From Candidatus Auribacterota bacterium (lineage in GTDB: Bacteria; Auribacterota; Tritonobacteria; UBA1439): 64,000 nt of DNA. The notes beneath the pieces were generated by a model. It made no database searches, was not told the origin of the DNA, and saw only the letters and a program-made list of their open reading frames with translations. Positions within the stretch are counted from its first letter, which is position 1; each line of letters starts with the position of its first letter. Where the stretch lies: contig JAPLCX010000059.1 in assembly GCA_026392035.1 (NCBI GenBank), forward strand, positions 82-64,081, written 5' to 3'. A program made the translations under genes and the position numbers. Positions 5,247 through 64,000 of the stretch are shown here, piece after piece.

Positions 5247-5262
5247 CTCTTTTCCCGTGGCC

Positions 5263-8078: not shown

Positions 8079-8169
8079 TCCACCTCTCCCGATTGTAACA
8101 AGCTCTCTTCATGATAAGGCATGCCGACAGTTGGATCAATATTTCATTTTTAGCGCCGCGAACGACGGA

Positions 8170-8290
8170 ATTGAGCGGCAATCCCGCTAAGCAGGACGCG
8201 GGAAAAGAGCGAGCGCCCGGAGCGCTCGCGCATCCGCGCCGGCAAGGCGGCAGTCCCGCCCTGCGGGAGCGCCCGCTCGAATGACTTGTT
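8170..8290. repeat. structured intergenic repeat, copy 5 (degenerate right arm)
   Basis: AACGACGGAATTGAGCGGCAATCCCGCTAAGCAGGACGCGGGAAAAGAGCGAGCGCCCGGAGCGCTCGCGCATCCGCGCCGG...GCCCGCTCGAATGACTTGTTCGC. The hairpin is GCGAGCGC-CCGGA-GCGCTCGC. GCCGCGAAC occurs at both flanks. Confidence 0.6.
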
Positions 8291-16707: not shown

Positions 16708-16781
16708 GTAGGGGTTCGATCCTTCGACTGCGCTCAGGACAAGTTTTATCGAACCCGGGCGCGATGAATCGCGCCCCTACA
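16708..16781. repeat. structured repeat family 2, copy 1 (28-bp core GCGCTCAGGACAAGTTTTATCGAACCCG plus hairpin GGGCGCGA-TGAA-TCGCGCCC plus CTACA)
   Basis: It shares an exact 28-mer and a covarying hairpin with 59832-59908. It contains the tRNA T-loop-like string GGGGTTCGATCC, but no cloverleaf can be drawn. It lies 3' of birA. Confidence 0.5.
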
Positions 16782-48915: not shown

Positions 48916-49056
48916 GTGAAGATTTTTTGGGGGGGGGAGGAAGTTTGCGCCAATCTGTGGTGAATAAATCTGTGGTAAATGGAGAAAGAAAAGAATTTCT
49001 ATACAGCGGCTTAATTATACGGATGTTACCACAGATGAATCACCACTGATTTACTC
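48916..49056. repeat. 141-bp repeat B, the perfect reverse-complement copy of 11758-11898 (includes a G9 tract)
   Basis: Exact identity to the reverse complement of repeat A. It ends 19 bp before the prs start codon. An extra CAACCACAGATTGCACAGATAG lies at 48893. Confidence 0.8.
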
Positions 49057-49074
49057 CACAAAGGAGGGGTGACA

Positions 49075-50013: not shown

Positions 50014-50030
50014 TCCAGAGGAGGCTGAAG

Positions 50031-50465
50031 ATGAGGGTGCTCGCCCTGGACGTGGGGGAGAGGCGAATCGGAATGGCGATGAGCGATCCCCTTGGGATAA
50101 CCGCCCAACGCGCGGGCACCATAGAGCGGGGGGCGCTCGAGGAGACGCTTCGTCGTCTGCAGGAGATCGTCATCAGGGATGAGATCGGCACGGTCGTGGT
50201 CGGCCTCCCCCTGAGCATGGATGGTTCACGGGGCACGAGCGCAGCGGGCATGGGCAGGTTCGCTGAGGACCTCAGACGCGCCCTCGCTATCCCCGTCACG
50301 CTGTGGGATGAGCGGCTGACCACCGCGGAGGCGGACAGGCTCATGAGATCGGCTGGGGTTTCTCGGAAGGAGAGGATGAGGCACCTCGATGAGGTTGCTG
50401 CCCAGCTCATCCTCCAATCATACATGGACAGCCGCAGAGAAGGTTCAGAACGCGAGCACTGCTGA
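50031..50465 (+). CDS. ruvX: Holliday junction resolvase-like protein RuvX/YqgF
   Basis: MRVLALDVGERRIGMAMSD...VVGLPLSMDGS. Confidence 0.85.
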   Translation: MRVLALDVGERRIGMAMSDPLGITAQRAGTIERGALEETLRRLQEIVIRDEIGTVVVGLPLSMDGSRGTSAAGMGRFAEDLRRALAIPVTLWDERLTTAEADRLMRSAGVSRKERMRHLDEVAAQLILQSYMDSRREGSEREHC

Positions 50466-50538
50466 TATTTCAGAGCCGCCCCGCTGCCCGCCTACCATGG
50501 GACGGGACAGGTACGAGCCTTTGAGTCCATTGGAGCGC

Positions 50539-51813
50539 ATGTATACCACAACCGTGCTTGATAACAACCTGAGGGTAACCACTCACGAGATGCCTTCCAT
50601 GGAGTCGGTTGCCCTCGGGCTCTGGGTGGGGATTGGCGGCCGCCATGAGGAGAAGCAGTTCAACGGCATTTCCCATTTTCTCGAACACATCCTCTTCAAG
50701 GGGACGTCGAGACGTTCGGCCATACAGATCTCCGAGGAGATTGAGGGCGTGGGCGGATCGCTCAACGGATTCACGAGCGAGGAGTACACCTGTTATATCG
50801 TCAAGGTGCCGCACGCCCATCTCCGGCTCGCCTCCGACGTCCTCTTCGATATGTACCTGCATCCGGCCATACGAGAGGAAGATGTACAAAAGGAAAAGAC
50901 GGTAATCAAAGAGGAAATCAATCTGTACCGCGACACCCCTCAGCACCATGTCCTGGACCTGTTCAACGAGGTAATGTGGACTGATCACCCGTTGGGACGC
51001 CCGCTCGTAGGCACCGCTACGACGATCAGCGCGCTGTCGCGGGAATCCCTGCGTGGCTACCAGAGACGATACTACACGCTGCGCAATGCGGTCCTCGCCG
51101 CAGCGGGGCGCCTGCGGCACGGTGAATTGCTCGAGGCGGTGGGCGGCTCCCTCCCGAAGCGAAGCGGGGCCTCGCGTGGCCCGAGGTGCATTTCCGCTGC
51201 TGATGCCCAGCGGTCTCCCGGCTTGCTCCTGCATCAAAAAAACACCGAGCAAACACATATCTGCGTGGGAGTGCGGGGATATCACCAGGAGCACCCGGAT
51301 AGGTACGCGCTCCAGCTGCTGAGCATTGCGATGGGGGAGAACATGAGCTCGCGGCTCTTTCAGAGGATCCGGGAGAAACACGGCTTGGCGTACGCGATAC
51401 ATTCATCTGTCGCGCGCTACAAAGACACGGGGTTCTTTTCCATCTATGCCGGCGTGGAAAGCAGCAAATTTGTCAAAGCCATCTCCTTGATCATGAAAGA
51501 GCTCGCGATGCTTCGGAAGACAGGGTTGCGAAAGATCGAACTGGCACGCGGAAAGGAGTACTGGATCGGGCAGCTCTCAATGGAGATGGAAAAAACAACT
51601 CCGCAGATGATCCATATAGGCGAGAGCCTTATCTGCTCTGGACGGATTTTGACAATGGATGAAATATTATCTAAGATTATGTGCGTGAGCCTCGATGATG
51701 TGCAGAGGGTGGCGGTTGATATTTTGAATGACCGCAGACTCAATATGGCAGTCATAGGCCCCCTCCGCGAAGAGGAGAGTCAGGTGAGGGAAAATCTCCA
51801 TTTCGACTACTAA
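50539..51813 (+). CDS. M16-family zinc peptidase (pitrilysin/insulinase-like)
   Basis: The inverted zinc motif HxxEH is present as GISHFLEHILFKGT, with the downstream E in LNGFTSEEYTCY. The start is uncertain; ATG at 50497 is an alternative. Confidence 0.75.
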   Translation: MYTTTVLDNNLRVTTHEMPSMESVALGLWVGIGGRHEEKQFNGISHFLEHILFKGTSRRSAIQISEEIEGVGGSLNGFTSEEYTCYIVKVPHAHLRLASDVLFDMYLHPAIREEDVQKEKTVIKEEINLYRDTPQHHVLDLFNEVMWTDHPLGRPLVGTATTISALSRESLRGYQRRYYTLRNAVLAAAGRLRHGELLEAVGGSLPKRSGASRGPRCISAADAQRSPGLLLHQKNTEQTHICVGVRGYHQEHPDRYALQLLSIAMGENMSSRLFQRIREKHGLAYAIHSSVARYKDTGFFSIYAGVESSKFVKAISLIMKELAMLRKTGLRKIELARGKEYWIGQLSMEMEKTTPQMIHIGESLICSGRILTMDEILSKIMCVSLDDVQRVAVDILNDRRLNMAVIGPLREEESQVRENLHFDY

Positions 51814-51837
51814 TTGTAAATACTATGTTCATCTGTG

Positions 51838-51866
51838 TTTATCTGTGGTTATACGTTAGTTTCCAC
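51838..51866. repeat. partial ACCACAGAT-type motif cluster (third, degenerate occurrence) upstream of rpe
   Basis: CATCTGTGTTTATCTGTGGTTATACG resembles TTCATCTGTGGTAACATCCGTATAAT from repeat A/B. Confidence 0.3.
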
Positions 51867-51897
51867 ATTTAGTTCTATTTAGCTATAGAGGTGTCCG

Positions 51898-52581
51898 GTG
51901 CGAACTGCTCCGGGAATCAAAATTGCCCCCTCGCTGCTGGCGGCCGATTTCGGCAGGCTGGGAGATGAGGCGCAGGCCGCTGAATCGTCAGGCGCCGATA
52001 TGCTGCATCTCGACGTGATGGACGGCCACTTCGTGCCCAACATCACCATCGGACCGGGAACAGTAGCGGCGATCCGGAAGCGGGTCAGGATTCCCCTGGA
52101 TGTCCACCTTATGATCAGCGAGCCTGATAAATATATTGATGCGTTCGTCGAGGCAGGGGCCGATATCCTCACCGTGCACGCCGAGGTCCTCCCTCGCCTC
52201 CACCACACGCTCCAGGTGATTCGCTCCAGAGGCATCAAAGCGGGCGTTTCCATAAATCCGGCGACTCCGTTGAGGGATATCGAGGCCGTGCTCGACGAGG
52301 CCGACCTCGTGTTGCTCATGACCGTCAACCCGGGATTCGGCGGCCAGAAATTCATTCGCTCCGTTCTGCCGAAAATAGCGGACTTGCGGAAGATCGCCGA
52401 CACAAGGGGATACGCATTTGACATTGAGGTGGACGGCGGAATAACACTGCATTCCGCGCGGGAGGCGGCGGAGGCGGGCGCCACTATTATCGTGGCAGGC
52501 ACCGCGATCTTCGGCGCGAGCGATATCGCTCACGCCATTAAGGTGCTACGAGAAGCCGCTCAGTTCGTTGCAGGTGAATGA
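51898..52581 (+). CDS. rpe: ribulose-phosphate 3-epimerase
   Basis: IAPSLLAADF...HLDVMDGHFVPN...DVHLM. Confidence 0.9.
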   Translation: MRTAPGIKIAPSLLAADFGRLGDEAQAAESSGADMLHLDVMDGHFVPNITIGPGTVAAIRKRVRIPLDVHLMISEPDKYIDAFVEAGADILTVHAEVLPRLHHTLQVIRSRGIKAGVSINPATPLRDIEAVLDEADLVLLMTVNPGFGGQKFIRSVLPKIADLRKIADTRGYAFDIEVDGGITLHSAREAAEAGATIIVAGTAIFGASDIAHAIKVLREAAQFVAGE

Positions 52582-52633
52582 GTTATAGTACACTCACAAT
52601 CAGTTATGATGTGCGTGGCAGGACGGGATATCT

Positions 52634-52661
52634 CGAGCCCGAAACTCACTTCGGGCTTTTT
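52634..52661 (+). terminator. Rho-independent terminator downstream of rpe
   Basis: GAGCCCGAAACTCACTTCGGGCTTTTTT has a 7-bp GC-rich stem and a U-tract. Confidence 0.7.
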
Positions 52662-52678
52662 TAGCCTGGACACAAATT

Positions 52679-54481
52679 ATGACTCCTCGCATAGATCATA
52701 TAAGAAACTTCTCGATTATCGCTCATATAGACCACGGCAAGTCCACGCTGGCTGACCGTCTTCTCCAGCTGACTCACACCATTGATGAACGGCAGTTCAG
52801 GGACCAGTTTCTTGACGATATGGACCTGGAGAGGGAGCGTGGGATCACGATCAAGGCTCATCCCGTCCGCATGCGCTATGTGGCGCGGGACGGCAAAGAA
52901 TACATTCTCAACCTGATTGATACTCCCGGCCACGTTGATTTCAGCTATGAGGTCTCACGCAGCCTCTCGGCGTGCGAGGGAGCGCTGCTCGTCGTTGACG
53001 CATCGCAAGGCGTTGAAGCTCAAACAGTTGCGAACTGCCACCTCTGCATGCAGAACAATCTCAAGATCATTCCCGTCATCAATAAGATAGATATCGCGAG
53101 CGCCGACGTTGATGAAACCAAGCGCCAGCTCGAGGATGTGCTCGCGCTGCCCTCGGAAGACGCCATCTGTGTGAGCGCCAAGGAGGGCACCGGGATTGAT
53201 CAGTTGATGGAGGCAATCGTGAGGCTCATCCCCCCACCCGAGATGCCGAAAAGGGATGAGCTTAAGGCCCTGATTTTTGATTCTCTCTTCGATACCTTCC
53301 GCGGCGTGATTGTCCACGTGCGCGTCTTCAGCGGCCATGTGGAGGCGGCGACAAGGATCCAGCTCATGGCGACCGGGAAGACCTTTGAAGTCCATGAGGT
53401 CGGTATTTTCATGCCCGAGGCTGACTCCCGTGAACAGCTTCAGGCGGGGGAGGTGGGCTACATTATCGCCAACATTAAGGATTCAGCCGATGTGCGGATC
53501 GGCGATACCATCACCAGCGCGAGCAGGCCAGCCGCTCAGCCGCTCCCGGGCTTCAGGCGGCTGCGCCCGATGGTGTTCAGCGGCTTTTACCCGGTCAACA
53601 CCTCAGAATACGAAGGCCTCAAATCCTCCCTGAACCGCCTCCGGCTCAATGACCCCTCCTTCACCTATGAAGCGGAAAACTCGGTTGCCCTCGGGTTCGG
53701 CTTCCGCTGCGGTTTCCTCGGGCTCCTGCACATGGAGATCATCCAGGAGCGCCTCGAGCGCGAATATAACATGGGCATTGTGGCAACTGTTCCCAGTGTG
53801 ATCTACTCCGTCAAGAAAAAGGATGGGAGCACCATTGAAATTGACAACCCCGTGCGCCTGCCGCCGACACAAGAAACAGAGGAAATCCGCGAACCGATGA
53901 TCCGGGCATGCATCATCGTGCCCAATCAAATGATCAGTTCAATGATGAAACTCGCTCAGGAACGAAGGGGTGAGTGCGTCGGGACTGAATCGCTCGATAA
54001 ACATCGCGTCATCCTCACCATGGAGCTCCCATTCAATGAGGTCGTGATTGACTTTTACGACCGTCTGAAAACAGTCACGAGCGGCTATGGGTCGATGGAC
54101 TACGAACACATCGGCTTCCGGGCGTCGGACATCGTCAAGCTGGACATCCTCATCAACAAAGAGCCTGTTGACGCGTTCTCATGCCTCGTCCACCGGAGCA
54201 AGGCCGAGCACAGGGGACGCCAGCTCGCGGAGAAGCTCAAAGAGGTCATTCCCCAGCAGCTCTTCCGCGTGGCCATCCAGGCGGCCATAGGCAACCGGAT
54301 CATCGCGAGCGAGGTGGTGCGGCCGCTCAAGAAGGATGTGACGGCGAAGTGCTACGGCGGCGACATCACGCGCAAGCGCAAGCTCTGGGAGAAGCAGAAA
54401 GAGGGGAAGAAGAAAATGAAGCAGATCGGCAAAATCAACATTCCTCAGAAGGCCTTTATCGAAGTGCTGAAGATGGACTGA
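52679..54481 (+). CDS. lepA: elongation factor 4 (translational GTPase LepA)
   Basis: The G1-G4 motifs are present (AHIDHGKST, DTPGH, NKID). The LepA-specific C-terminal domain is present. Confidence 0.95.
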   Translation: MTPRIDHIRNFSIIAHIDHGKSTLADRLLQLTHTIDERQFRDQFLDDMDLERERGITIKAHPVRMRYVARDGKEYILNLIDTPGHVDFSYEVSRSLSACEGALLVVDASQGVEAQTVANCHLCMQNNLKIIPVINKIDIASADVDETKRQLEDVLALPSEDAICVSAKEGTGIDQLMEAIVRLIPPPEMPKRDELKALIFDSLFDTFRGVIVHVRVFSGHVEAATRIQLMATGKTFEVHEVGIFMPEADSREQLQAGEVGYIIANIKDSADVRIGDTITSASRPAAQPLPGFRRLRPMVFSGFYPVNTSEYEGLKSSLNRLRLNDPSFTYEAENSVALGFGFRCGFLGLLHMEIIQERLEREYNMGIVATVPSVIYSVKKKDGSTIEIDNPVRLPPTQETEEIREPMIRACIIVPNQMISSMMKLAQERRGECVGTESLDKHRVILTMELPFNEVVIDFYDRLKTVTSGYGSMDYEHIGFRASDIVKLDILINKEPVDAFSCLVHRSKAEHRGRQLAEKLKEVIPQQLFRVAIQAAIGNRIIASEVVRPLKKDVTAKCYGGDITRKRKLWEKQKEGKKKMKQIGKINIPQKAFIEVLKMD

Positions 54482-54606
54482 ATCAATCTGCGCATACGAC
54501 ACCCCATGTTTTGCCTATTTTATGGATGAAGAGTTATGGTATCCTTTTAAAACTTTTTCCGACTGAGCATGTGGGCAATATGGATCTGGGGTAGGGGAGA
54601 GGGGAA

Positions 54607-55578
54607 ATGAGTTTCTGGAAAAATAGAAAGATAGTCAGCTATGCCAGGCTGGTGCTCAAAACAACGCGAAAGAGCTACCTGAGACATGGCAAAAAGCTCA
54701 TCGAGCGCGATGCGCATTGCCTCGAGAATGACATAACGGCGGTTGCTGACGCGCTGCGGAGCGGGAATATTTCCGATGTAGAGAAATCTGCCGAGAAACT
54801 GCACAGCAGTTTCGAGAGGTACCTTGGGTTTGCCAAGAAATCGGTTATCAGGGAATATGCAGAGGCCTTCCTTTTCGCCCTCATCCTGGCGGTCTTCTTG
54901 CGCACCTTCGTGATACAGCTCTTCAAAATCCCCACGGGCTCCATGGAACCCACGCTCCACGGCGCTCAGAATTACGGCTTCGGAGACCATATCGTGGTGA
55001 ATAAGTTCATCTATGGCCCGCAGACGCTCGATTGGGTCGGCGTCCCGTGGACAAATTATGGGTTTGATCTGCCCACCTGGCGCTTTACAAAACTCGCGCT
55101 GCGGGAACCGAAGCGCGGCGATATCGTCGTCTTTAAATTTCCGTTTAACTACCACTGCAATCAATGCTATGTCGATTTCAATCTGTCAAGAGGTACGCCC
55201 CGGGTATGCCCATCCTGTGGGTCCCGGCATGTAGAATACCAGAATAAGGATTTCGTCAAACGTTGCATAGGGCTCCCTGGCGAGACGGTTGAGATACGCG
55301 ACGGTGATATCTATATCGATGATGCGCTCGTAACCGAACCGAAGATTGTCAAGGATATCCACTATACCAATATTCTCTCCGGCAACGGGCCGGGGCGGGG
55401 GGTATACGGCTATAGAGGGCAAAGATTCAAGGTGCCCCAGAACGCCTATTTTGTCCTGGGCGACAATAGCGCCAACAGCAAGGACAGCCGTTTCTGGGGT
55501 TTTGTCCCGTGTGAGGATATCCGCGGGGAAGCCTTTTTTATCTACCTCCCACCGAAGAGAATAGGGTTAATTAGATAG
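54607..55578 (+). CDS. lepB: signal peptidase I
   Basis: The catalytic Ser lies in IPTGSMEPTL and the Lys box in KRCIGLPGE. GDNSANSKDSR is also present. Confidence 0.85.
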   Translation: MSFWKNRKIVSYARLVLKTTRKSYLRHGKKLIERDAHCLENDITAVADALRSGNISDVEKSAEKLHSSFERYLGFAKKSVIREYAEAFLFALILAVFLRTFVIQLFKIPTGSMEPTLHGAQNYGFGDHIVVNKFIYGPQTLDWVGVPWTNYGFDLPTWRFTKLALREPKRGDIVVFKFPFNYHCNQCYVDFNLSRGTPRVCPSCGSRHVEYQNKDFVKRCIGLPGETVEIRDGDIYIDDALVTEPKIVKDIHYTNILSGNGPGRGVYGYRGQRFKVPQNAYFVLGDNSANSKDSRFWGFVPCEDIRGEAFFIYLPPKRIGLIR

Positions 55579-55612
55579 GGTTTCCTGATCCATTGGGAGA
55601 GAATATTGCGCA

Positions 55613-58600
55613 GTGATTATTTTGCACGCTGGATACAGTGGTGGGCATTTGCTTCTCTGGGGAGAGACACACGCTAAAAACGAATATTTCCCTGCGAAGC
55701 TGCGGAGGCAAAAGCCCAAAGCGCTCCCTTATGACGCCCGGTCTGATATGGTTGTCACCGCTCTTAGACAAGCCGGCGTCTGTTCTACGATCAGGAAAAG
55801 TCAGGTAGCTACGGTAGTCTCTTGGATTCCGACAGTCGATCATGCTCCTCTGCCCTCCAGTGCTATTATTGCGCAATTGCCCCATTCACATAAAAAGCCT
55901 GTATTGAACCCATGGAATGTCTCGGTAATTCGGCTGACCAGAGAACAGATGGTTGAAATCCTCTGCGCCTGCGTTGGAAAACAAAACCTGGCGCCCGGCC
56001 TAATTGTTGGGAGCGACTTGGCATTCTGGGCAAGGGCTATGCGCTTTGCAGGCGCGCTTATCACAAGACAGAAATATCTTCCCGCGATAACCGAAGACAA
56101 CGGGACATGCTATGCACAGTGGAAGCCTGTCTTCACCGGTGCCGACGTTGATATTCTAGAAAAGCTTGCCAAAGCCATGCCGGCGGCCGCGCGCGCGTTG
56201 ACGCAGGGAGATAATTCGCCGCCAAATGAATCCTCACGTTCAACGCTTGCTGATTTCACTGGAGAAATTGTTGATCATCTAGTCCGCGCTCCATGTTCTT
56301 CTTCTGTAATGATACAAAAACGAGGGAGGAGGAGGAAGGTCCCAACTTTTTCCAGCATGCACGATCAGTGGTTGCATGCGCTGCGTTCGCCTGATGGGCT
56401 TATGGAGGGCGATGAAGGCGAGTTGGCTCAGCTTAAGGCCCAGGTGTGCGATTGGCAACGGCTGATATCTCTTCCTACATCGGCGCCTTTTCGGCTTTGT
56501 TTCCGGTTGGAAGAGCCCGGGATCAAGATGGAGGGGACGGAAATGGTTCAAAGCGCGGATGAGGCCTGGTATGTACGTTACCTGCTTCAGTCGGTCAATG
56601 ATCCAAGCCTGCTCATTCCGGCAACAGAGGCATGGAGCACTACCGGTAAACAAAAGTCGCTTCTCGATCTCACTGGATTTGACCATCGCGAATACGTATT
56701 GTTGTCATTGGGGCAGGCATCGATGATTTGCCCGCGTATAGAAGGAAGTTTAAGAACCTCTATTCCCGGCGGTTACGAACTCGATACCGCAGAGGCATAT
56801 AAATTTCTCACAGAAAAAGCGATGGTGTTGGAGGAGGCGGGGTTTAAGATTATGCTGCCGGCATGGTGGACCCGCAAGGGAACGAAGCTGCGTCTGAAGG
56901 CCAGCGCAAATGCGAGGAGCCCAGTGATGACAGGGCACGGTCGACTGTCACTTGAAAGCGTAGTTGAGTTCGACTGGGAAGTCGCATTGGGCGGTGAGAA
57001 GATATCCCTGGTGGAACTCCAGGAACTCGCAAAACTCAAGGCGCCGCTTATCAGATTTCGCGGCCAATGGGTACAAATGACCGCTGAGGAGATAGCGGCG
57101 GCCCGCGACTTCTGGAAGGAAAAGGCTTCAGGCCGAGCAACCGTGCATGAAATAATCCGGATGGCTTTGGGGGCGGCACGAACTCCGAGTTCTATTGATT
57201 TCGAAGGGGTAAGGGCAACGGGTTGGCTTGCAGATCTTTTGAAACAGTTGGAAGAGGGCACGCCTTTCGAAGAGCTGCCTCACCCGGAAAGTTTCCAAGG
57301 GAGACTGCGCCCTTATCAAATAAAGGGTTATTCGTGGTTGAGTTTCTTGCGGCGATGGGGACTGGGGGCATGCCTGGCCGATGACATGGGATTGGGAAAA
57401 ACCGTGCAGACACTTGCGCTTATCCAGAGAGACTGGCTGGCGAATAGCCATGGCCCGGTGCTGCTTGTATGTCCCATGTCTGTCATTGCCACTTGGCTGA
57501 AGGAGGCCGGCTGTTTCACTCCTGAGTTGCCTATAATGGTCCATCACGGCGCCAGCAGATTAAAAAGCGAGGTATTTGAAGCAGAGGCGGGGAAGCACGC
57601 CATGGTAGTTACCAGTTACGCTTTGCTCCATCGTGATTTTGAGATATTCAAGGGTGTGCCGTGGGCGGGGATGGTTTTGGACGAGGCGCAGAATATCAAG
57701 AATCCAGAAACCAAGCAGGCTCGAGCTGCGCGAGCCATTGGATCGAGCTATCGAATCGCGCTCACCGGTACGCCTGTCGAAAACAATGTTGGTGACCTTT
57801 GGTCTATAATGGAATTCTTGAATCCCGGATTGCTTGGCACACAGACCGAATTCAAAAGAACTTTTTTTATCCCTATCCAGGCCGATCGCGACCAGGAGGC
57901 CATGCAGAGCCTTAAGCGCCTGACGGGGCCGTTCATCCTCAGGCGCCTCAAGGCAGACAAAGCGATAATCGCGGATCTGCCCGAGAAAATGGAAATGAAG
58001 GTGTTCTGCACTTTGACAAAAGAGCAGGCCTCTCTTTATGCTGCGGTGGTTGATGATGCTTCCAATGCCCTTGACTCGGTCGAAGGGATCGAGCGCAAGG
58101 GAGTGATCCTGGCAACACTGTCCAAGCTCAAGCAGGTATGCAATCATCCGAGGCAGTTTCTTGGCGACAATTCCGAAATTCATGGGCGGTCGGGCAAGCT
58201 CTCCCGCTTGACTGAAATGCTGGAGGAAGTCATGGAGGTTGGGGACAGAGCGCTGATATTTACGCAATTCGCCGAGATGGGCGAAATCCTTAAGTGCCAC
58301 CTTCAGGAATGGTTTGGTCGTGAGGTGCTCTTCCTGCACGGCGGTGTGCCGAAAGCGCGGCGTGACCGAATGGTTGAACGCTTCCAGACAGATGCCGGAG
58401 GACCGTCTATCTTCATCCTCTCACTCAAGGCCGGCGGCTTCGGGTTGAATCTACAGCGCGCCAATCATGTTTTTCACTTCGACCGTTGGTGGAATCCTGC
58501 GGTGGAGAACCAGGCAACCGACCGTGCGTTTCGTATCGGTCAAAAACGGAATGTTCAGGTCCATAAGTTTCTCTGCGCCGGGACGCTGGAAGAGAAGATT

Positions 58601-58732
58601 GATGAGATGATCGAGAGCAAGAAAGAGATTGCTCAGGCCGTGGTTGGAGTGGGGGAGGGTTGGCTGACGGAGCTTTCAACTAACGAACTCAGGGAATTCT
58701 TCAAGCTTCGGAAAGAAGCCTGGGGGGATTAA
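55613..58732 (+). CDS. SNF2-family DEAD/DEAH-box helicase with an approximately 520-aa N-terminal SNF2-associated region
   Basis: Motif I is LADDMGLGKT. Motif II is DEAQNIKN. LTGTPVENNVGDLWSIMEFLNPG is present. The C-terminal helicase domain has QATDRAFRIGQKRNVQVHKF. The start is a GTG after GGGAGAG. Confidence 0.85.
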   Translation: MIILHAGYSGGHLLLWGETHAKNEYFPAKLRRQKPKALPYDARSDMVVTALRQAGVCSTIRKSQVATVVSWIPTVDHAPLPSSAIIAQLPHSHKKPVLNPWNVSVIRLTREQMVEILCACVGKQNLAPGLIVGSDLAFWARAMRFAGALITRQKYLPAITEDNGTCYAQWKPVFTGADVDILEKLAKAMPAAARALTQGDNSPPNESSRSTLADFTGEIVDHLVRAPCSSSVMIQKRGRRRKVPTFSSMHDQWLHALRSPDGLMEGDEGELAQLKAQVCDWQRLISLPTSAPFRLCFRLEEPGIKMEGTEMVQSADEAWYVRYLLQSVNDPSLLIPATEAWSTTGKQKSLLDLTGFDHREYVLLSLGQASMICPRIEGSLRTSIPGGYELDTAEAYKFLTEKAMVLEEAGFKIMLPAWWTRKGTKLRLKASANARSPVMTGHGRLSLESVVEFDWEVALGGEKISLVELQELAKLKAPLIRFRGQWVQMTAEEIAAARDFWKEKASGRATVHEIIRMALGAARTPSSIDFEGVRATGWLADLLKQLEEGTPFEELPHPESFQGRLRPYQIKGYSWLSFLRRWGLGACLADDMGLGKTVQTLALIQRDWLANSHGPVLLVCPMSVIATWLKEAGCFTPELPIMVHHGASRLKSEVFEAEAGKHAMVVTSYALLHRDFEIFKGVPWAGMVLDEAQNIKNPETKQARAARAIGSSYRIALTGTPVENNVGDLWSIMEFLNPGLLGTQTEFKRTFFIPIQADRDQEAMQSLKRLTGPFILRRLKADKAIIADLPEKMEMKVFCTLTKEQASLYAAVVDDASNALDSVEGIERKGVILATLSKLKQVCNHPRQFLGDNSEIHGRSGKLSRLTEMLEEVMEVGDRALIFTQFAEMGEILKCHLQEWFGREVLFLHGGVPKARRDRMVERFQTDAGGPSIFILSLKAGGFGLNLQRANHVFHFDRWWNPAVENQATDRAFRIGQKRNVQVHKFLCAGTLEEKIDEMIESKKEIAQAVVGVGEGWLTELSTNELREFFKLRKEAWGD

Positions 58733-58838
58733 TATGACCAGTGACAAGAGGAGCGGGTATGACAGAGAATGGGCTGAAGAGAAAAAAAGGTACCGCGTGA
58801 ATATGGAAACGATTCGAATCTGAAAAGAGGAGAGCACT

Positions 58839-59756
58839 ATGTACTGGCGCTATGGCTATTTCACACCGTCAAAACCGCGTGCGGTAAGAGGCGGTATTAA
58901 GGCGCAATCAGGCCGAAGAGCCGTTGGTAAAAATTGGTGGGCAGAGCGCTGGAATGCCGTGTTGGAAGAACTTTATGCGGGTAACAGGTTGACGCGGGGC
59001 AGATCCTATGCTCGCCGGGGACAGGTTTTGCGCATTGATATTGAAAAAGGGATGGTAAAGGGGCAGGTGCAGGGCTCCCGCTCCAGACCATATGATATCT
59101 CTATCAGGGTAAAAGTTATGTCAAAACCCGGCTGGAAAAAAGTGGTAAAGACGCTCTCGGAAAAATCCCTTTTCACCGCGAAGCTTTTAGCCGGTGAGAT
59201 GCCTCAGGATATTGAAGAGGTTTTTAAAAAGGCCGGATTATCGCTTTTCCCTGAGAGAGGCAATGACCTAAAAACGGAGTGCTCGTGCCCGGACTGGGCG
59301 AATCCATGCAAACACATTGCGGCTGTCTATTATCTGCTGGGCGAAGAATTTGATCGAGACCCTTTTTTGATTTTCAAACTGCGAGGGATGAGCAGAAAAG
59401 AATTCGTTAATCTCTTGAGCCACATCAGCAAAACAGCCGGCGCACCCAAGGCGTGCGAGATGGCCAAAAGCCTGGATGGCCATGCGGAAGTTTCCTCAAC
59501 AGATGAACCGATCTCGTCAGATCTCAAAACCTACTGGGACGGGGGGGAGATACCGGATGATTTATTCGGAGAGGTTTCGATTCCACGAGTTCCGGCCGCT
59601 CTGCCTAAGCGATTGGGCAGTTTTCCATTTTGGCGCGGTGAAGAACGATTCCTCGAAGCTATCGAGCCGATTTACGAAGCTGCGTCCCCCCGCGGTCTTG
59701 ATACCTATATCGGCGAATATACTATGGCGGTCGCTGAGGATAATGCGCCGACGTGA
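58839..59756 (+). CDS. SWIM zinc-finger protein
   Basis: CxCxnCxH is present as ECSCPDWANPCKHIAAVYYLL. It follows the SNF2 gene by 107 bp on the same strand. Confidence 0.75.
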   Translation: MYWRYGYFTPSKPRAVRGGIKAQSGRRAVGKNWWAERWNAVLEELYAGNRLTRGRSYARRGQVLRIDIEKGMVKGQVQGSRSRPYDISIRVKVMSKPGWKKVVKTLSEKSLFTAKLLAGEMPQDIEEVFKKAGLSLFPERGNDLKTECSCPDWANPCKHIAAVYYLLGEEFDRDPFLIFKLRGMSRKEFVNLLSHISKTAGAPKACEMAKSLDGHAEVSSTDEPISSDLKTYWDGGEIPDDLFGEVSIPRVPAALPKRLGSFPFWRGEERFLEAIEPIYEAASPRGLDTYIGEYTMAVAEDNAPT

Positions 59757-59831
59757 GCGAAATCGGAGATTACATGTCATTGGGGAGGGAGAGGCAATCC
59801 GGCTATCTGAGTTTATACTGAGCTTGCCGAA

Positions 59832-59908
59832 GCGCTCAGGACAAGTTTTATCGAACCCGCTCTATGCCAAGCAGATTGGTGCGGGCCTGATAAATCAGGC
59901 CCCTACAG
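59832..59908. repeat. structured repeat family 2, copy 2
   Basis: It has the same 28-mer GCGCTCAGGACAAGTTTTATCGAACCCG as copy 1. Its hairpin GGGCCTGA-TAAA-TCAGGCCC covaries with GGGCGCGA-TGAA-TCGCGCCC in copy 1, followed by CTACA. Confidence 0.5.
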
Positions 59909-60049
59909 GTCTTGTCTTGGGTGCGCACTAGTCATTCCCCCGACACCCTTCGTGAGGGTCTCTGATTTACGGTTGTCATAACATCCCTGCCACCAGTTAA
60001 ATATGTAATGCATCTTGGCAATTTTCCGATAAACAATATCCGGAAACCG

Positions 60050-60078
60050 GACATCTCAAAAATCGACATCTCAAAAAT
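60050..60078. repeat. tandem direct repeat (GACATCTCAAAAAT x2) upstream of the EVE/mcrBC genes
   Basis: The sequence is GACATCTCAAAAAT-C-GACATCTCAAAAAT, about 190 bp upstream of the EVE-protein start. Confidence 0.5.
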
Positions 60079-60267
60079 ATGCTTCCCTACCTCCCGCTCA
60101 ACGTGTCATAATCCCATGGCAAAGCAGGGCGGCGTTATCAGTCAATTTGGCCTGATTGGCTCTTGGAACTCCGCAAGGATTGACCCGTTAGCGTGGCATT
60201 GTGCTACGGAGGGATGTCGGGGTATAAGATCCCCCGACACGGCATTTGCCAGAGAGGATAGGTACAT

Positions 60268-61668
60268 ATGAGAGCATTCACGTGGATTCCGTTATACAAG
60301 GAACTGGCAGACAAGCTGTTGGCGTACCGGGACCGCCAGGGCGACCTCATTGCGATTCTGAAGGAACTCAAAGACCAGGGACTCCCGGTCATAGGACTTA
60401 CCGACAAGGACAAGAGGGGAAAAGCGGTTCCGCTTGAGGCAATAGACCCGTTCACGTTCTTTGCCTCATTCAATCGCAAGGCCACGGATCAAAACCGCCG
60501 AGCTATCTTGACTATGATCAAGGAACGACTGCAACTGCAGGCGGGAGTCCCTGCCGATTTCGACGGCATCCCGATCATGTCTCCCATGCAGTCATGGTTT
60601 TTTGCCTTTTATCCTGAGAGGAAACCTGACGATATAACAGCCTTATGGGCATTCGCTGAGGCCATTGTCAGGCGCGCGCCGGAGGATGTTACCCCGGAAC
60701 TGTTCAACCGATGTCTCGAAGTCGCTTACGTGAAAGTCCCCAACCTCACCATGGGCATGTTCTGGATGCGACCAGAAATATATCTGGCACTGGACAGACG
60801 AAACCGCAAGCTTCTTGACGAACGCGGCGTCGCGCACGAGGTGAAAGACTGGGCATCGTACCTTCAGTTCCTAAAGAACGCTCGGTCGCTCGTACCGGAA
60901 CCGCACTATGAATTCTCACACGCAGCATACGCGGGCGAGTCTGGTAGGAGATACTGGGTATTCCAGGGCAACCCGAAGATCTACGACGTAGTGGGCGCAC
61001 TTCGGGCTGGGGAGGTGAAAACTTGGCGAGTGAACCAGCGCATGAAGGACATTCATCCTGGTGACAAGGTTATTGTCTGGGTCACCGGCGAAGCCGCCGG
61101 CTGCTACGCACTGGCAACGGTCATGTCCGAAGTTTGCACTGTTGCAGAAGATGCCAAGGAGGCTTCCTACTACCGTAAAGGGCCTGGCAAGAGTACTCCG
61201 TTTACGGGTGTCAAGCTCCGCATTGATACGAAGTTGTGGGATAACCCGGTCTCAAAGGCAGACATTGCCGGGCAGCCGGCGTTCCGTGATTTTCCGGCCG
61301 GTCGACAAGGGACAAATCTGGCCGCCACAAAGGCCTACTACGACGGCATTCTGGCGCTGGCCAGAGGGAGGACGGAAATGCGCTACTGGCTCTACGCTCC
61401 TGGACGCTATGCAAAGTATTGGGATGAATGTTGGCAGAAAGGCATCATGCTATTTGGTGCCGACGAGCTTTCCGACCTGAGCGCCTTTTCCGACAAGGCG
61501 GCGATCGAAGAAGCGTTCAAGAAGGCAAACCGGTTGAAGCACCGTCCAACCAACGACGCGCGTGCCGCGTGGGAGTTCTCGCACGTCCTCAGTCCCGGGG
61601 ACATCGTCATAGCTAAGAAAGGCGCGCGGCAATACGTTGGCTATGGCGTTGTTTCCGGGCCCGTATAG
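60268..61668 (+). CDS. modified-base reader protein: N-terminal McrB-associated domain, an EVE (PUA-like) domain, and the N-terminal half of a second EVE domain
   Basis: The first EVE domain spans RYWVFQGNPKIYDVVGALRAGEVKTWRVNQ...GDKVIVWVTGEAAGCYALATVMSEV...GVKLRIDTKLWDNPVS. The second EVE begins RYWLYAPGRYAKYWDECWQKG...SPGDIVIAKKGARQYVGYGVV and appears to continue in the mcrB reading frame. Confidence 0.6.
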   Translation: MRAFTWIPLYKELADKLLAYRDRQGDLIAILKELKDQGLPVIGLTDKDKRGKAVPLEAIDPFTFFASFNRKATDQNRRAILTMIKERLQLQAGVPADFDGIPIMSPMQSWFFAFYPERKPDDITALWAFAEAIVRRAPEDVTPELFNRCLEVAYVKVPNLTMGMFWMRPEIYLALDRRNRKLLDERGVAHEVKDWASYLQFLKNARSLVPEPHYEFSHAAYAGESGRRYWVFQGNPKIYDVVGALRAGEVKTWRVNQRMKDIHPGDKVIVWVTGEAAGCYALATVMSEVCTVAEDAKEASYYRKGPGKSTPFTGVKLRIDTKLWDNPVSKADIAGQPAFRDFPAGRQGTNLAATKAYYDGILALARGRTEMRYWLYAPGRYAKYWDECWQKGIMLFGADELSDLSAFSDKAAIEEAFKKANRLKHRPTNDARAAWEFSHVLSPGDIVIAKKGARQYVGYGVVSGPV

Positions 61669-63139
61669 ACACGAGGCCGAACGGACGACCTACCGCAATG
61701 TGAGACCTGCGAGATGGGTCAAAAAAGGGGAATGGCAGAAGAATGAAGGGGGGCCGATCGTCCAGAAAGCCCTGACCGACATCACGAAGTACCCGGAATA
61801 CGTCCAGGAACTGCGGGAGTTGATAGGGATTGAAGACACTGCGATTGGCAACCGAACACCACTGCCGCTGAACATCATCCTCTACGGCCCCCCGGGGACG
61901 GGGAAGACGTACACGCTCCGCAATAAGTACATGGAGCAATTCACAGAGCGCGCGGCCGCGCTGAGCAGGGAGGATTTCGCTGCGGATCTAGTCGCGGACC
62001 TGGCATGGTGGCAGGTCATCACGATGGTAATGCTGGATCTCAAGACCAGTAATGTCAGCGGCATTCTTGCGCACCCCCTCATGGAGGCACGGATCCGGCG
62101 CGCCAGCAACCGCACACCGCGGGCAGCGATCTGGGCCCACCTGCAGATGCACACCAAGACAGACTGCCCAGAGGTGAAGTATGCCAAACGGTACGAGCCG
62201 CTCCTGTTTTCGAAGGATGCCGAATCGGTCTGGTCGATCGACGAGAAACTCGCGACCGAGGAGGCGCCTGACCTCGTCGAGGCCCTGGAACGCTACCGTG
62301 GCTATACGCCGGATCAAGGCGCGGTGATCAAGCGCTATGAGTTCACCACCTTCCACCAGTCGTACAGTTACGAGGATTTCGTCGAGGGCATCAAACCCGT
62401 CATGTCCGAGGAAGTGGCGGAGACATTGGCCTATGAAGTCAAGCCGGGCATCTTCAAAACCATGGTGCAGCGAGCCCTAGCAGACCCCAACCACGACTAC
62501 GCACTCCTCATTGACGAGATCAATCGCGGCAACGTTGCCAACATCTTCGGGGAGCTGATCACGCTCATCGAAGATGATAAGCGCCAAGGCACCCCGAATG
62601 AGCTACGCGCCCGCTTACCCTACTCGCGTGAGGAATTCGCTGTGCCGAAGAACCTGTACATCATCGGAGCAATGAATACCGCGGATCGCAGCGTCGAGGC
62701 GCTGGATACCGCCCTGCGCCGACGGTTCGCATTCGTTGCCATCCCGCCGCAACCGGAATTCATTAAGCAACCGGCGAATCTGGATGTGGATCTCCGGAAA
62801 CTTCTCGGCGTGATCAACGCGCGGATCGAGAAGCTCTTGGACAAGGATCACTGCATCGGCCACTCGTACTTCATGGGCATAGCCGCAAGCAGCGACCCTC
62901 TGGCCGAGTTGCGGAATGTCTTCGCGACGAAGATCCTGCCGCTGATGGAGGAGTACTTCTATGGCGATCCAGCCAAGATCGGCATGGTCCTGGGTGAACG
63001 GTTCGTATCGCGCAAAGACGAGGCCATCGAATGGGCAGAGGGTGATTGGGGAATGGACGAGTTCGAGGAGCGCCATGTGTACACCTTGCAGGATCCCAGG
63101 ACAATGAAGGACGGGGACTTCCGCGCCGTCTATGAGTGA
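61637..63139 (+). CDS. mcrB: McrB-family AAA+ GTPase (type IV modification-dependent restriction); probably the C-terminal part of an EVE-McrB fusion
   Basis: Walker A is NIILYGPPGTGKTYT. The McrB signature is ALLIDEINRGNVANIFGELITLIEDDKR. YIIGAMNTADRS is also present. The ORF-track start is a TTG that overlaps the upstream gene by 32 nt. The encoded N-terminus YRHEAERTTYRNVRPARWVKKGEW looks like the tail of the preceding EVE domain. Confidence 0.8.
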   Translation: MAMALFPGPYRHEAERTTYRNVRPARWVKKGEWQKNEGGPIVQKALTDITKYPEYVQELRELIGIEDTAIGNRTPLPLNIILYGPPGTGKTYTLRNKYMEQFTERAAALSREDFAADLVADLAWWQVITMVMLDLKTSNVSGILAHPLMEARIRRASNRTPRAAIWAHLQMHTKTDCPEVKYAKRYEPLLFSKDAESVWSIDEKLATEEAPDLVEALERYRGYTPDQGAVIKRYEFTTFHQSYSYEDFVEGIKPVMSEEVAETLAYEVKPGIFKTMVQRALADPNHDYALLIDEINRGNVANIFGELITLIEDDKRQGTPNELRARLPYSREEFAVPKNLYIIGAMNTADRSVEALDTALRRRFAFVAIPPQPEFIKQPANLDVDLRKLLGVINARIEKLLDKDHCIGHSYFMGIAASSDPLAELRNVFATKILPLMEEYFYGDPAKIGMVLGERFVSRKDEAIEWAEGDWGMDEFEERHVYTLQDPRTMKDGDFRAVYE

Positions 63140-64000
63140 CGTCATCCAAGTGTTCGAGCACACCACGCTCCCGGTGGGAGGGCAGTTCACGTCCACCCGC
63201 TTTGCCCGCCTCGTGCAATACAACGAACGTCACGGGAACCGCTTCTTTGACGTCGGTCACAACCGTATCCATTTCCGGAACTGTGTCGGCGTCATCCAGG
63301 TCGGCAATCTGACCATTGAGATCCTGCCCAAGGCCGACAAGACGCCGGATTCGCCCGCTCAGAAGCGGAAATGGCAGCGTGCTCTGGTCGAGATGCTGCG
63401 ACAGTCAGGCTTCATTCGATTGGCCTCGGTGTCAGACGCCAGACTGAGGCTGCGCGCATCCTCGCTACTGGACATCTACTTCGAGTCATTTCTAGCGGAG
63501 GTCGAGGATCTCGTGCACCACGGACTGGTCCGAAAGTATCGCCAGACCCGCGGGAATCTCCCTGCCCTGAAGGGGCGCATCCTCTTTCAACAGCATCTCT
63601 CCCAGAACCTCGTCCACCGGGAACGGTTCTTCACTGAGCACGTATTCTATGACCGCAACAACCGGTTCAACCAGGTCCTGCGCGTCGCCTTGGATGTGCT
63701 TGCTCGGGTGTCCGCCAACCCTCACCTGGTTGCCCTCGCACGCAGCCTCTCGATGACCTTCCAAGACGTGGATGACATTGCTGTGAGCGAACGGACTTTC
63801 ACCCGGCTTCCTCACACGCGAAACACGGAACGCTACCGCCGGGCGCTGCAACTCGCCCGCCTGATCATCTTGAACTACAGCCCGGACGTTCGAAGCGGCA
63901 GAGAGGATGTCCTGGCGATCCTGTTCGACATGAACTGCCTGTTTGAACGCTTTATCTATGCCCAACTGAAAAGAGCGGAGGCGAGGCAGCCCTCACACAA
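63132..64000 (+). CDS. mcrC: McrC-family subunit (partial; continues past the window end)
   Basis: The ATG overlaps the mcrB stop (ATGAGTGA). The N-terminus MSDVIQVFEHTTLPVGG...NRIHFRNCVGVIQVGNLTIEILPK is typical of McrC. There is no stop before position 64000. Confidence 0.7.
   Translation, partial: MSDVIQVFEHTTLPVGGQFTSTRFARLVQYNERHGNRFFDVGHNRIHFRNCVGVIQVGNLTIEILPKADKTPDSPAQKRKWQRALVEMLRQSGFIRLASVSDARLRLRASSLLDIYFESFLAEVEDLVHHGLVRKYRQTRGNLPALKGRILFQQHLSQNLVHRERFFTEHVFYDRNNRFNQVLRVALDVLARVSANPHLVALARSLSMTFQDVDDIAVSERTFTRLPHTRNTERYRRALQLARLIILNYSPDVRSGREDVLAILFDMNCLFERFIYAQLKRAEARQPSH

Follow-up and report, generated by a model that had tools for sequence, protein, structure and literature searches.

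A recently exchanged SNF2–SWIM gene pair downstream of lepB: an accessory cassette of a widespread kind with an SsoRad54-type DNA motor

Introduction

What does a two-gene unit composed of an SNF2-family ATPase and a SWIM zinc-finger protein do, and does it belong to the restriction locus that follows it? The question is raised by a contig of Candidatus Auribacterota bacterium, of which a stretch of 64,000 nucleotides, here called the window, was analysed. In the window, the pair lies between lepB and an McrBC locus. The original prediction, made from the sequence alone, suggested that the pair might be a defence module in its own right or a partner of McrBC, and described such pairs as essentially uncharacterised. 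The latter description is nearly right, but an archaeal relative of the ATPase, SsoRad54, has been studied biochemically (PMC2677860).

Results

The first gene (55613..58732, + strand) starts with GTG and encodes an SNF2-family ATPase of 1039 aa. Its reading frame and translation, its Pfam domains and its match to 1z63_A assign it to the SSO1653/SsoRad54 subfamily with DUF3670. The GTG start is supported by the homologues, which align from residue 1 and keep M1, W16 and E18 invariant in 38 sequences. Pfam recognizes DUF3670 (residues 385-519, 140.8 bits), SNF2-rel_dom (568-847, 214 bits) and Helicase_C (862-976, 71 bits), all above their cut-offs, and the scan returned no further domain. The Snf2 ATPase core, residues 554-1032 (57272..58708, + strand), has motifs I, II, III and VI intact, with GLGKT at 593, DEAQ(NIKN) at 690, TGTP at 718 and QATDRAFRIGQ at 967. 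Among solved structures, SsoRad54 is its closest relative (1z63_A, E=1e-151, 510 bits). The core is 64-77% identical to homologues from 76 species of many phyla and from Methanosarcina (69%), with a single outlier at 39% (L049); for comparison, LepA is 54-57% identical to its more distant relatives. The N-terminal module that carries DUF3670 (residues 1-545; 55613..57247, + strand) is family-specific, with 33-52% identity across 69 loci. Its AlphaFold2 model has a mean pLDDT of 83.4, and Foldseek found no relative at E<=0.001 in PDB or BFVD. The window protein contains no intein.

The second gene (58839..59756, + strand) encodes the SWIM zinc-finger partner of 305 aa, which is identified by PF04434 (27.2 bits, cut-off 19.6, residues 143-167) and by the alignment of homologues. 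Its zinc knuckle CxCx6CxH (59265..59339, + strand; PF04434) is built by C148-x-C150-x6-C157-x-H159, four residues that are invariant in 22 aligned homologues. A basic N-terminal half is followed by an acidic C-terminal tail bearing an invariant motif, the pI being 10.0 for residues 1-200 and 4.3 for residues 201-305. AlphaFold2 models residues 30-200 with confidence and the tail as disordered, and comparison with the PDB gave neither a sequence nor a fold match. All the features that had been predicted for the two co-directional genes, namely the long N-terminal region and the motifs GLGKT, DEAQNIKN and CxCxnCxH, are present.

Across genomes, the SNF2 and SWIM genes are neighbours in nearly every case; they point in the same direction, with a short gap or an overlap between them, and they are fused in some lineages. 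Of 80 species, which represent more than 12 phyla plus Methanosarcina, 76 have the SNF2 gene directly before the SWIM gene on the same strand, with a median intergenic gap of 31 nt. In Halococcus, in Nostoc and at the loci L008 and L120 the two genes overlap or abut, and a Wolbachia WO record holds a SWIM-partner::SNF2 fusion. A profile search with the SWIM partner gave 7238 clusters at 50% identity, in line with the wide distribution originally proposed. The partner occurs on 143 plasmid records, megaplasmids for the most part, and in 2 of 50,697 phage records; cyanobacterial plasmids carry the same helicase and SWIM gene pair. Synteny around the pair is almost nil, even inside classes. No neighbouring family recurs in more than 4 of 79 loci, and no conserved third gene was found, on which basis the cassette is self-contained. 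Some neighbourhoods hold defence genes, among them DISARM, an HEC-01-like pair, AIPR, HEPN and PIN.

In the clade of the window, the pair forms a cassette of about 4.1 kb that is present or absent and has recently been exchanged. Upstream of it are lepA (52679-54481) and lepB (signal peptidase I, Pfam Peptidase_S26; 54607..55578, + strand), the latter being the conserved left flank of an insertion hotspot. The sister contigs L089 and L090 share this lepA-lepB flank, but their site is empty. In contrast, the sister-lineage contig L091 carries the cassette at this site: by blastn, 4115 bp of the window (55804..59918) correspond to positions 3438-7552 of L091, with 63 differences in 4115 ungapped bases (98.5% identity), while the lepA and lepB flanks are 85-90% identical. 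The cassette genes have dS values of 0.040 and 0.014, compared with 0.42 and 0.56 in the flanks. This gap of ten-fold or greater indicates a recent transfer, and the L091 copy is far younger than its flanks. It is also 5'-truncated, as the left end of the cassette (55581..55803), including the SNF2 start codon and the first ~64 codons, is deleted there. The predicted accessory nature of the block and the variable content after lepB are thereby borne out, and the data support a two-gene module that is accessory and moves horizontally.

The right end of the cassette carries a dispersed MITE-like repeat of ~110 nt (59790..59905, + strand). A core of 26-28 nt is identical at 16730-16757 of the window, and a further copy is found in L089 at 7008-7063. 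The repeat had been described as structured; its presence is correct, but its predicted fold is no better than that of shuffled sequence (z = -0.72). Presence and absence, recent transfer and a hotspot beside a restriction system, as seen at this site, are hallmarks of defence genes too.

The neighbouring restriction block carries an EVE domain, an AAA_5/McrB_lid ATPase and McrC. An EVE-domain ORF (60268-61668, + strand, Pfam EVE) and an McrB AAA+ ORF (61643-63139, + strand, Pfam AAA_5) are the two halves of one EVE-(DUF8426)-McrB AAA+ gene (60268..63139, + strand; Pfam including precomputed domains), in which a +1 frameshift near 61657-61664 interrupts the reading frame; homologues from plasmids align without a break over this junction. 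The sequence here is 100% identical over 9654 nt in the separately assembled Logan contig L001, and three more Logan contigs give the same gene calls. Only the 5' part of McrC (63136..64000, + strand) lies in the window before the gene runs off its end; in L001, from the same genome, McrC has 422 aa and matches PF10117 (McrBC). The McrB scores 147 bits with the E. coli McrB equivalog model (cut-off 637). A type IV, modification-dependent McrBC with an EVE reader is the kind of system to which the block belongs, with its reader-ATPase gene frameshifted here. The pair does lie between lepB and this locus as originally placed, but "immediately upstream" proves to be a spacer of 511 nt between the SWIM gene and the EVE ORF of a frameshifted gene.

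Discussion

The pair is very widespread, long known and functionally unsolved, and it joins an SsoRad54-type DNA motor to a SWIM partner. We see about an even chance that it is a self-contained, mobile accessory cassette in which an SSO1653/SsoRad54-type duplex-DNA translocase and its dedicated SWIM partner help DNA transactions. SsoRad54 of Sulfolobus solfataricus (SSO1653/SSO1655), after which the "SSO1653 subfamily" of Snf2 proteins is named in PMC2677860, is an ATPase that depends on dsDNA and changes DNA topology; it also binds RadA and stimulates strand exchange (PMC2677860). Its PDB entries (1Z63, 1Z6A, 1Z5Z) cover the catalytic half, to which the comparison is confined. The ATPase core of the window protein is very close to it, all examined helicase motifs are intact, and in both proteins the core follows a long non-catalytic N-terminal region. 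By analogy, the window protein would likewise be a dsDNA-dependent ATPase and translocase. Unlike SsoRad54, it is bacterial, has 1039 aa and contains Pfam DUF3670, and the RadA interaction should not be assumed to extend to RecA. Its best NCBIfam matches, which share its architecture, are the SCO1167/SCO6262 family (NF058637; 715.6 bits, residues 277-1033, cut-off 1200) and the sll1366 "intein-prone" family (NF058636; 362.3 bits, residues 1-596, cut-off 550). As it stays below both equivalog cut-offs, it is a relative rather than a member of these families. A bacterial parallel would be the Swi2/Snf2 translocase YwqA of B. subtilis, whose loss lowers viability when PcrA is depleted (PMC7385302), if YwqA belongs to the DUF3670/SWIM-partner group.

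A possible alternative, though we consider it unlikely, is that the pair stands alone as a new type of defence against phages or plasmids, one that needs no nuclease of its own. In such a module, the SWIM protein would act as the sensor of foreign DNA or of a phage protein, with the SNF2 motor stripping or blocking the replication or packaging machinery of the invader or recruiting host nucleases. The recent transfer of the cassette and its presence or absence among close relatives suit such a role, as does a hotspot shared with the EVE-McrBC insertion. Near-absent synteny points the same way. In L120, from another phylum, the pair is followed by a candidate defence pair similar to HEC-01A/B, which is degraded in the related L121; one locus adjoins DISARM genes (DrmD E=0, DrmA E=3e-175), others adjoin AIPR, HEPN, PIN or PD-T4-6-like genes, and integrases and a transposase lie just downstream in L008. 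Furthermore, SNF2 motors are components of known systems, and ZorD (Zorya I), DrmD (DISARM), DpdE (Dpd), BrxHI/II (BREX; BrxH) and HmaA share the Snf2 core with the window protein; the pair also resembles them in being accessory and horizontally transferred.

However, the SNF2 protein fits the PADLOC defence motors, with E-values down to 5e-125, over the generic core at residues ~540-1011 only, and its NCBIfam scores are far below cut-off for ZorD (290 against 1500), DrmD (97 against 950) and DpdE (45 against 500). The SWIM partner has no model of its own in PADLOC v2 (top match 14.8 bits, E=0.002). In contrast to the defence motors, the window protein has no Mrr or other nuclease domain, and the pair contains neither a nuclease nor a toxin domain. 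The partner genes of the known systems (ZorABC, DrmABC/M, Dpd, BREX) are absent here, and those systems lack a SWIM partner. Defence genes flank the pair occasionally, at some loci and not at most: among 130 immediate neighbours, housekeeping and metabolic genes predominate (SRP54, Hsp70, QueA, sulfatases, PAS domains). The neighbour set matched 126 PADLOC families, but 127 ORFs taken from unrelated loci as a crude control still matched 76, so that any defence enrichment is at best modest. Genes in an arms race rarely keep core identities of 64-77% across phyla, the SWIM partner is rare in phage records, and no paper connecting the SNF2-SWIM pair with defence was found in the literature. A defence role as originally proposed is possible, with defence genes at some loci in its favour and profile matches confined to the generic core against it; a nuclease-type immune role is less likely than that of a DNA-transaction helper.

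It appears improbable that the pair is a transcription factor similar to RapA/HepA, whose motor joins RNA polymerase, recycles or dislodges the stalled enzyme and resolves transcription-replication conflicts. The RNA polymerase-associated RapA/HepA of E. coli is likewise a non-essential bacterial ATPase of the Swi2/Snf2-like kind and has a long N-terminal region, and Haseltine and Kowalczykowski noted that SsoRad54 resembles bacterial HepA-annotated proteins in sequence (PMC2677860). YwqA of B. subtilis is named, together with Mfd and HepA, as one of the SF2 translocases for which an interaction with RNA polymerase has been reported, and ΔywqA lowers viability ~8-fold on PcrA depletion (PMC7385302); the parallel drawn here is one of Swi2/Snf2 translocase class. 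Against such a role, the RapA NCBIfam model scores 46 bits (cut-off 576) and matches the C-terminal lobe only. The N-terminal module has no Foldseek match at E<=0.001 among the PDB chains compared. RapA has no SWIM partner, and the Snf2 classification as cited in PMC2677860 places the RapA group outside the strict Snf2 family and the SSO1653 group inside it. The core of the Methanosarcina homologue is 69% identical despite an archaeal-type RNA polymerase, which makes a shared polymerase-specific interface unlikely. An accessory gene that moves horizontally also suits a core transcription role poorly.

Cooperation with McrBC, in which SNF2/SWIM and the adjacent genes would form one modification-dependent restriction system, is very improbable. 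The two units are adjacent and co-oriented, in the same order in several assemblies of this genome. However, a tblastn search for EVE, McrB and McrC found them near 0 of 80 other SNF2-SWIM loci, phmmer detected none of them among 657 neighbour ORFs, and L091, the closest cassette-bearing relative, keeps the cassette without McrBC. The McrBC block of ~4.9 kb differs in G+C (0.58-0.59 against 0.49-0.55) and is bounded on both sides by sequence common to L091. With the spacer and the frameshift in mcrB, this marks it as a damaged insertion in its own right that has no relation to the SNF2-SWIM cassette, and the comparative data effectively refute the composite system. A core housekeeping pair, inherited vertically beside lepB, is the least credible reading and is refuted: its place directly after lepA-lepB and its very high conservation are outweighed by the empty sister sites, by the dS discrepancy, by the truncation in L091 and by lepB being near 0 of the 80 other loci.

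For the preferred reading, a mobile helper of DNA transactions, the architecture suggests how the two proteins may act together. The SWIM protein would dock onto the motor with its invariant acidic C-terminal tail, for which the low confidence of the tail in the AlphaFold2 model gives indirect evidence. Its basic N-terminal half and zinc knuckle could guide the motor to DNA or to a protein bound there, or regulate it at such a site. As in SsoRad54, the motor may track along double-stranded DNA with ATP, change its twist and displace or remodel bound proteins. Extrapolated from this one archaeal enzyme studied in vitro, the likeliest role of the pair would be that of a non-essential helper in recombination or repair, or in the clearing of protein or RNA polymerase roadblocks.

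Gene order and the SNF2–SWIM pair

The SNF2–SWIM pair lies on the forward strand within a row of co-directional genes. prs, an M16 peptidase gene and rpe precede, in that order, lepA (52679–54481) and lepB (54607–55578), the left neighbour of the SNF2 gene (55613–58732, 1039 aa, GTG start). The SWIM gene (58839–59756, 305 aa) follows after 106 nt. After a further 511 nt, an EVE-domain ORF (60268–61668), a McrB-type AAA+ ORF (61643–63139) and the start of McrC (63136 onwards) are found, all on the + strand. The coordinates, the protein lengths and the motifs GLGKT, DEAQNIKN and CxCxnCxH of the original prediction are all correct, as checked by ORF calling and translation. The GTG start of SNF2 is supported by its homologues, whose alignments begin at residue 1 and in which M1, W16 and E18 are invariant. 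The 106-nt gap is occupied by a 29-codon ORF, MTSDKRSGYDREWAEEKKRYRVNMETIRI, at 58734–58823. This ORF is probably not a gene, since the gap is too short for it in most homologous loci.

Protein family and models

The SNF2 protein contains the motifs I (GxGKT), II (DExx), III and VI of a Snf2 core, with GLGKT at 593, DEAQ at 690, TGTP at 718 and QATDRAFRIGQ at 967. Both domains of the core score above the Pfam cut-off, SNF2-rel_dom (PF00176, residues 568–847) with 214 bits and Helicase_C (PF00271, 862–976) with 71 bits. N-terminal to the core, DUF3670 (PF12419) is recognized at residues 385–519 with 140.8 bits against a gathering score of 27.6. The core (554–1032) matches the catalytic domain of SsoRad54, the Sulfolobus Snf2 ATPase SSO1653, with E=1e-151 and 510 bits (PDB 1Z63, 1z63_A). 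The second-best solved relative is SMARCA5/ISWI with 254 bits, and no eukaryotic remodeller exceeds this score. SSO1653 is thus closer to the core than the other Snf2 subfamilies, as judged from the PDB scores, and closer than RapA; membership of RapA/HepA is rejected with 46.4 bits for NF003426 against a cut-off of 576. The best NCBIfam match is the SCO1167/SCO6262 helicase (NF058637) with 715.6 bits, below its equivalog cut-off of 1200, and the N-terminal part matches the cyanobacterial sll1366 helicase (NF058636) with 362.3 bits, below the cut-off of 550. With SsoRad54 as best relative by far and all NCBIfam scores below cut-off, sequence comparison assigns the protein to the SSO1653 subfamily of Snf2 ATPases, with a DUF3670-containing N-terminal module and outside every named equivalog. 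The N-terminal 545 residues of the motor give a good AlphaFold2 model (pLDDT 83), for which model comparison returned no significant match among solved structures and none among viral models.

The partner protein, 100% identical to one labelled 'Candidatus Aureabacteria', contains a SWIM zinc knuckle (PF04434, 27.2 bits, cut-off 19.6) made up of C148, C150, C157 and H159. Its N-terminal half is basic with a pI of 10.0, and its C-terminal tail is acidic with a pI of 4.3. The tail carries the invariant motif A-x-L-x-K-R-L-G-x-F-P-x-W-R...R-F-L. In the AlphaFold2 model, residues ~30–200 are confident and the tail is disordered. Comparison of sequence and model with solved structures gave no significant match for the SWIM protein.

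The functional unit is two genes

When 1.84 billion representatives were searched with a SWIM-partner profile, 7238 clusters at 50% identity matched, 1959 of them at E<=1e-30, which bears out the expectation that the pair is widespread. A motif scan of GTDB species representatives confirms at least 591 loci, and we studied the best 80 of these. They come from Planctomycetota, Acidobacteriota, Thermodesulfobacteriota, Dehalococcoidia, Rhodothermales, Verrucomicrobiota, Armatimonadota, Methylomirabilota, Omnitrophota, Patescibacteria, Bacillota, Pseudomonadota and the archaeon Methanosarcina. SNF2 lies directly upstream of SWIM on the same strand in 76 of the 80 loci, the alignments being separated by a median of 31 nt, and annotated records show the genes overlapping or abutting. 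In three of the four exceptions the contig breaks off shortly before the SWIM gene; in the fourth, L011, ~2.1 kb of upstream sequence contain no core match. The SWIM gene adjoins SNF2 in the window, and a natural fusion of the two is found in the Wolbachia phage WO record MN180251.1 (L123, 5989–8829). The N-terminal ~220 aa of this 946-aa 'SNF2/RAD54 family helicase' are homologous to the partner in its stand-alone form, at 28% identity and E=3e-27.

Identity to the homologues amounts to 64–77% for the core (with L049 as an outlier at 39%), 50–62% for the SWIM protein and 33–52% for the N-terminal module. For comparison, LepA is only 54–57% identical to that of more distant lepA–lepB loci. These alignments point to a very strong sequence constraint on the pair across domains of life. 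No such conservation extends to a third gene. When the 657 neighbouring ORFs were clustered, the largest family occurred in 4 of 79 loci, and only four locus pairs had two or more neighbour families in common. The functional unit is exactly two genes.

Some loci deviate in their arrangement. An extra gene of up to 311–329 aa lies between SNF2 and SWIM in L005 (8967–9956), L066 (308–1243), L024, L041 and L050. Its family is one of the neighbour clusters that reach 4 of 79 loci, and the full-length extra genes of L005 and L066 have no Pfam or PADLOC match. The SNF2 gene is apparently split or interrupted in L019, L049, L064 and L069, where the N-terminal part and the core are in separate ORFs, in L064 several kb apart. 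These splits may reflect inteins, as implied by the NCBIfam label 'intein-prone'. The loci L041 and L042 (contig SBAX01000204.1) are identical and represent both orientations of one contig, which suggests an assembly artefact by inverted duplication.

Mobility of the cassette at the lepB hotspot

A LepB search led to three sister-lineage contigs with the same lepA–lepB flank, at protein identities of 92% for LepA and 84–85% for LepB. In two of them, L089 and L090, lepB is followed almost at once by genes for a 397-aa AAA_16/HTH protein and a GH57 amylase, so that these are empty sites. The third, L091, has flanks 94–95% identical to L090 and carries between them a segment 98.5% identical to window 55804–59918 (63 of 4115 bases differ in a gap-free alignment). 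The lepA and lepB genes of L091 share only 90% and 85% identity with those of the window. Synonymous divergence (dS) between the window and L091 amounts to 0.040 in SNF2 and 0.014 in SWIM, whereas lepA reaches 0.42 and lepB 0.56. From this difference we infer that the cassette passed between the two lineages long after their split. The L091 copy lacks 223 nt (L091 3436–3520 compared with window 55581–55803) so that SNF2 has lost its start codon and the ~64 codons at its 5' end. Since this deletion removes the invariant M1, W16 and E18, the L091 copy may be decaying.

The content downstream of lepB varies among relatives, in line with the accessory look of the block in the original prediction: nothing is inserted in L089 and L090, L091 carries the cassette alone, and the window carries both the cassette and EVE–McrBC. 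A core gene pair in synteny with lepB, named in the original prediction, together with no enrichment near defence genes, as the finding that would count against the defence locus, is ruled out by the empty sites in L089 and L090 and by the absence of lepB from all 80 other loci (tblastn). The pair behaves as a mobile accessory cassette and not as a core gene.

The right end of the cassette is a copy (59790–59905) of a short dispersed, MITE-like repeat, which also occurs at 16730–16757 and at L089 7008–7063 with an identical core of 26–28 nt, GCGCTCAGGACAAGTTTTATCGAACC. The prediction of a structured repeat copy in this block holds for the repeat and fails for the structure, as the predicted fold is no better than that of shuffled sequence. 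Within 55000–64000 no Rfam match was found, and promoter and terminator scans did not rise above shuffles. Near the start of the window there are two further direct-repeat families, a 101-nt unit in four copies (2710–2810, 5250–5350, 7445–7545 and 8148–8248; 66–77% identity with the reference copy) and a 40-nt repeat in two exact copies (865–904 and 5347–5386).

Relation to defence systems

A role of the pair in defence is a live rival to the reading that we favour, a DNA remodeller in recombination, repair or roadblock clearance; we regard defence as possible though rather doubtful. The cassette is polymorphic for presence or absence, was transferred recently and resides in a hotspot, all of which fit a defence gene, yet its sequence conservation is very high, it has no effector domain and no system-level PADLOC model describes it. 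The neighbourhoods are mixed, and several of them speak for defence. In an unrelated organism (L120, 10925–12609) an AAA_15/AAA_21 ATPase gene and a small gene come after the pair; the two match the PADLOC candidate system HEC-01A/B and are degraded to fragments in the closely related contig L121 (5573–6143). In L008, integrases and a transposase lie downstream. One locus adjoins DISARM, and MzaE, PD-T4-6-like, AIPR, HEPN and PIN neighbours are scattered elsewhere; these are a handful of strong defence matches among 130 immediately flanking ORFs from ~70 species, the majority of which are, as a point against defence, ordinary metabolic or housekeeping genes. PADLOC matched 126 families in these ORFs, but a crude control of 127 ORFs also matched 76 families, a semi-quantitative comparison that draws on the top 25 families of the PADLOC output and on an imperfect control whose loci are partly redundant. 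Also against defence, the SWIM partner is nearly absent from phages, with 2 matches in 50,697 records, while its 143 matches in 72,556 plasmid records are mainly to megaplasmids. The literature searched contains no paper that assigns a tested function to a bacterial SNF2+SWIM pair or that supports a role of the pair in defence.

A more specific form of this idea takes SNF2–SWIM as an autonomous, effector-less immune or anti-mobile-element module that has spread horizontally into defence hotspots across bacteria and archaea. The SWIM protein would act as a sensor that loads the Rad54-like motor onto invading DNA, where replication or packaging proteins of the invader would be evicted or stalled. 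We consider this unlikely.

Membership in a known defence system does not fit the pair. The PADLOC models of ZorD, DpdE, DrmD and BrxH cover only the generic Snf2 core, and the best PADLOC match of the SWIM partner is PDC-S62 with 14.8 bits (E=0.002). ZorD of Zorya I is rejected with 289.9 bits for NF041790 against a cut-off of 1500, its PADLOC match being limited to profile positions ~420–885 in the core. ZorD is distinguished by an Mrr-like nuclease domain and zorABC neighbours, whereas the window SNF2 protein is without these features and has lepB and the SWIM gene as neighbours. The NCBIfam scores of DISARM DrmD (97 against 950, and 67 against 610) and Dpd DpdE (45 against 500) are likewise far below cut-off, and no DISARM, Dpd or BREX partner genes were found within 49000–64000.

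The proposal of a composite SNF2/SWIM–McrBC locus has to be abandoned, as EVE, McrB and McrC occur at 0 of the 80 other loci (tblastn) and are absent from L091, the block is a separate insertion and mcrB is split. A phmmer search of all neighbour ORFs of the other loci for EVE, McrB and McrC was also negative. In L001, a longer contig of the same genome as the window, homology to the right flank of L091 resumes ~400 nt after McrC. Together with the L091 cassette that lacks EVE–McrBC, this marks the ~4.9-kb block as a second, independent insertion. Its G+C content is 0.58–0.59 versus 0.49–0.55 in the cassette. The EVE ORF ends with '...GYGVVSGPV*' and continues in the next frame as 'YRHEAERTTYRNVRPARWV...'. 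Once the junction is repaired, its peptide aligns without a break to 'AAA family ATPase' or 'DUF3578' genes on plasmids. Since these homologues are contiguous across the junction, EVE reader and McrB ATPase are two halves of a single gene that is interrupted by a +1 frameshift at ~61657–61664 in a GGGCCCG run. In the separately assembled Logan contig L001 this stretch is 100% identical to the window, and split gene calls of EVE/McrB are found in three further Logan contigs. The neighbouring system is damaged: its AAA_5 and McrC domains are present, but its reader–ATPase gene is frameshifted.

Proposed mechanism and significance

Biochemical knowledge of the subfamily comes only from SsoRad54, the closest enzyme that has been studied; its ATPase activity depends on dsDNA, and it alters the topology of DNA, binds to RadA and stimulates strand exchange (PMC2677860). 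The poorly characterised YwqA of Bacillus subtilis, which we liken to the window SNF2 only as a fellow Swi2/Snf2 translocase, is listed among the Swi2/Snf2 translocases that interact with RNA polymerase, and cells that have lost it are hit harder by PcrA depletion (PMC7385302). Based on the biochemistry of SsoRad54 and the YwqA findings, we propose that the pair may constitute a two-subunit DNA remodeller. The conserved tail of the SWIM protein would dock on the motor, and the basic zinc-knuckle half would target or gate it, either at DNA or at a protein bound to DNA. Translocating along duplex DNA, the motor would then remodel or evict proteins. The physiological outcome could be help in recombination or repair, or the clearing of roadblocks.

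Prokaryotic Snf2 proteins of the SSO1653 group are common and are the closest relatives of the eukaryotic chromatin remodellers, and the SWIM domain was named after these Snf2 proteins. The pair belongs to this known, long-uncharacterised kind. To our knowledge, the cellular role of the group has been open for about twenty years, and it forms the largest uncharacterised prokaryotic Snf2 subfamily. The main value of the present analysis is a clean definition of the two-gene unit and of its mobility. Any model of its function is now constrained by a unit of two genes, by its nature as a mobile accessory cassette, by strong conservation across domains of life and by a 545-aa N-terminal module and a SWIM partner that both have no solved structural relative. 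The tempting link to McrBC is removed. If the pair acts in defence, a new effector-less immune mechanism would be defined, and an immune module of the specific kind described would at last provide this largest subfamily with a function. If the pair acts in recombination or repair, a bacterial Rad54 analogue would be established.
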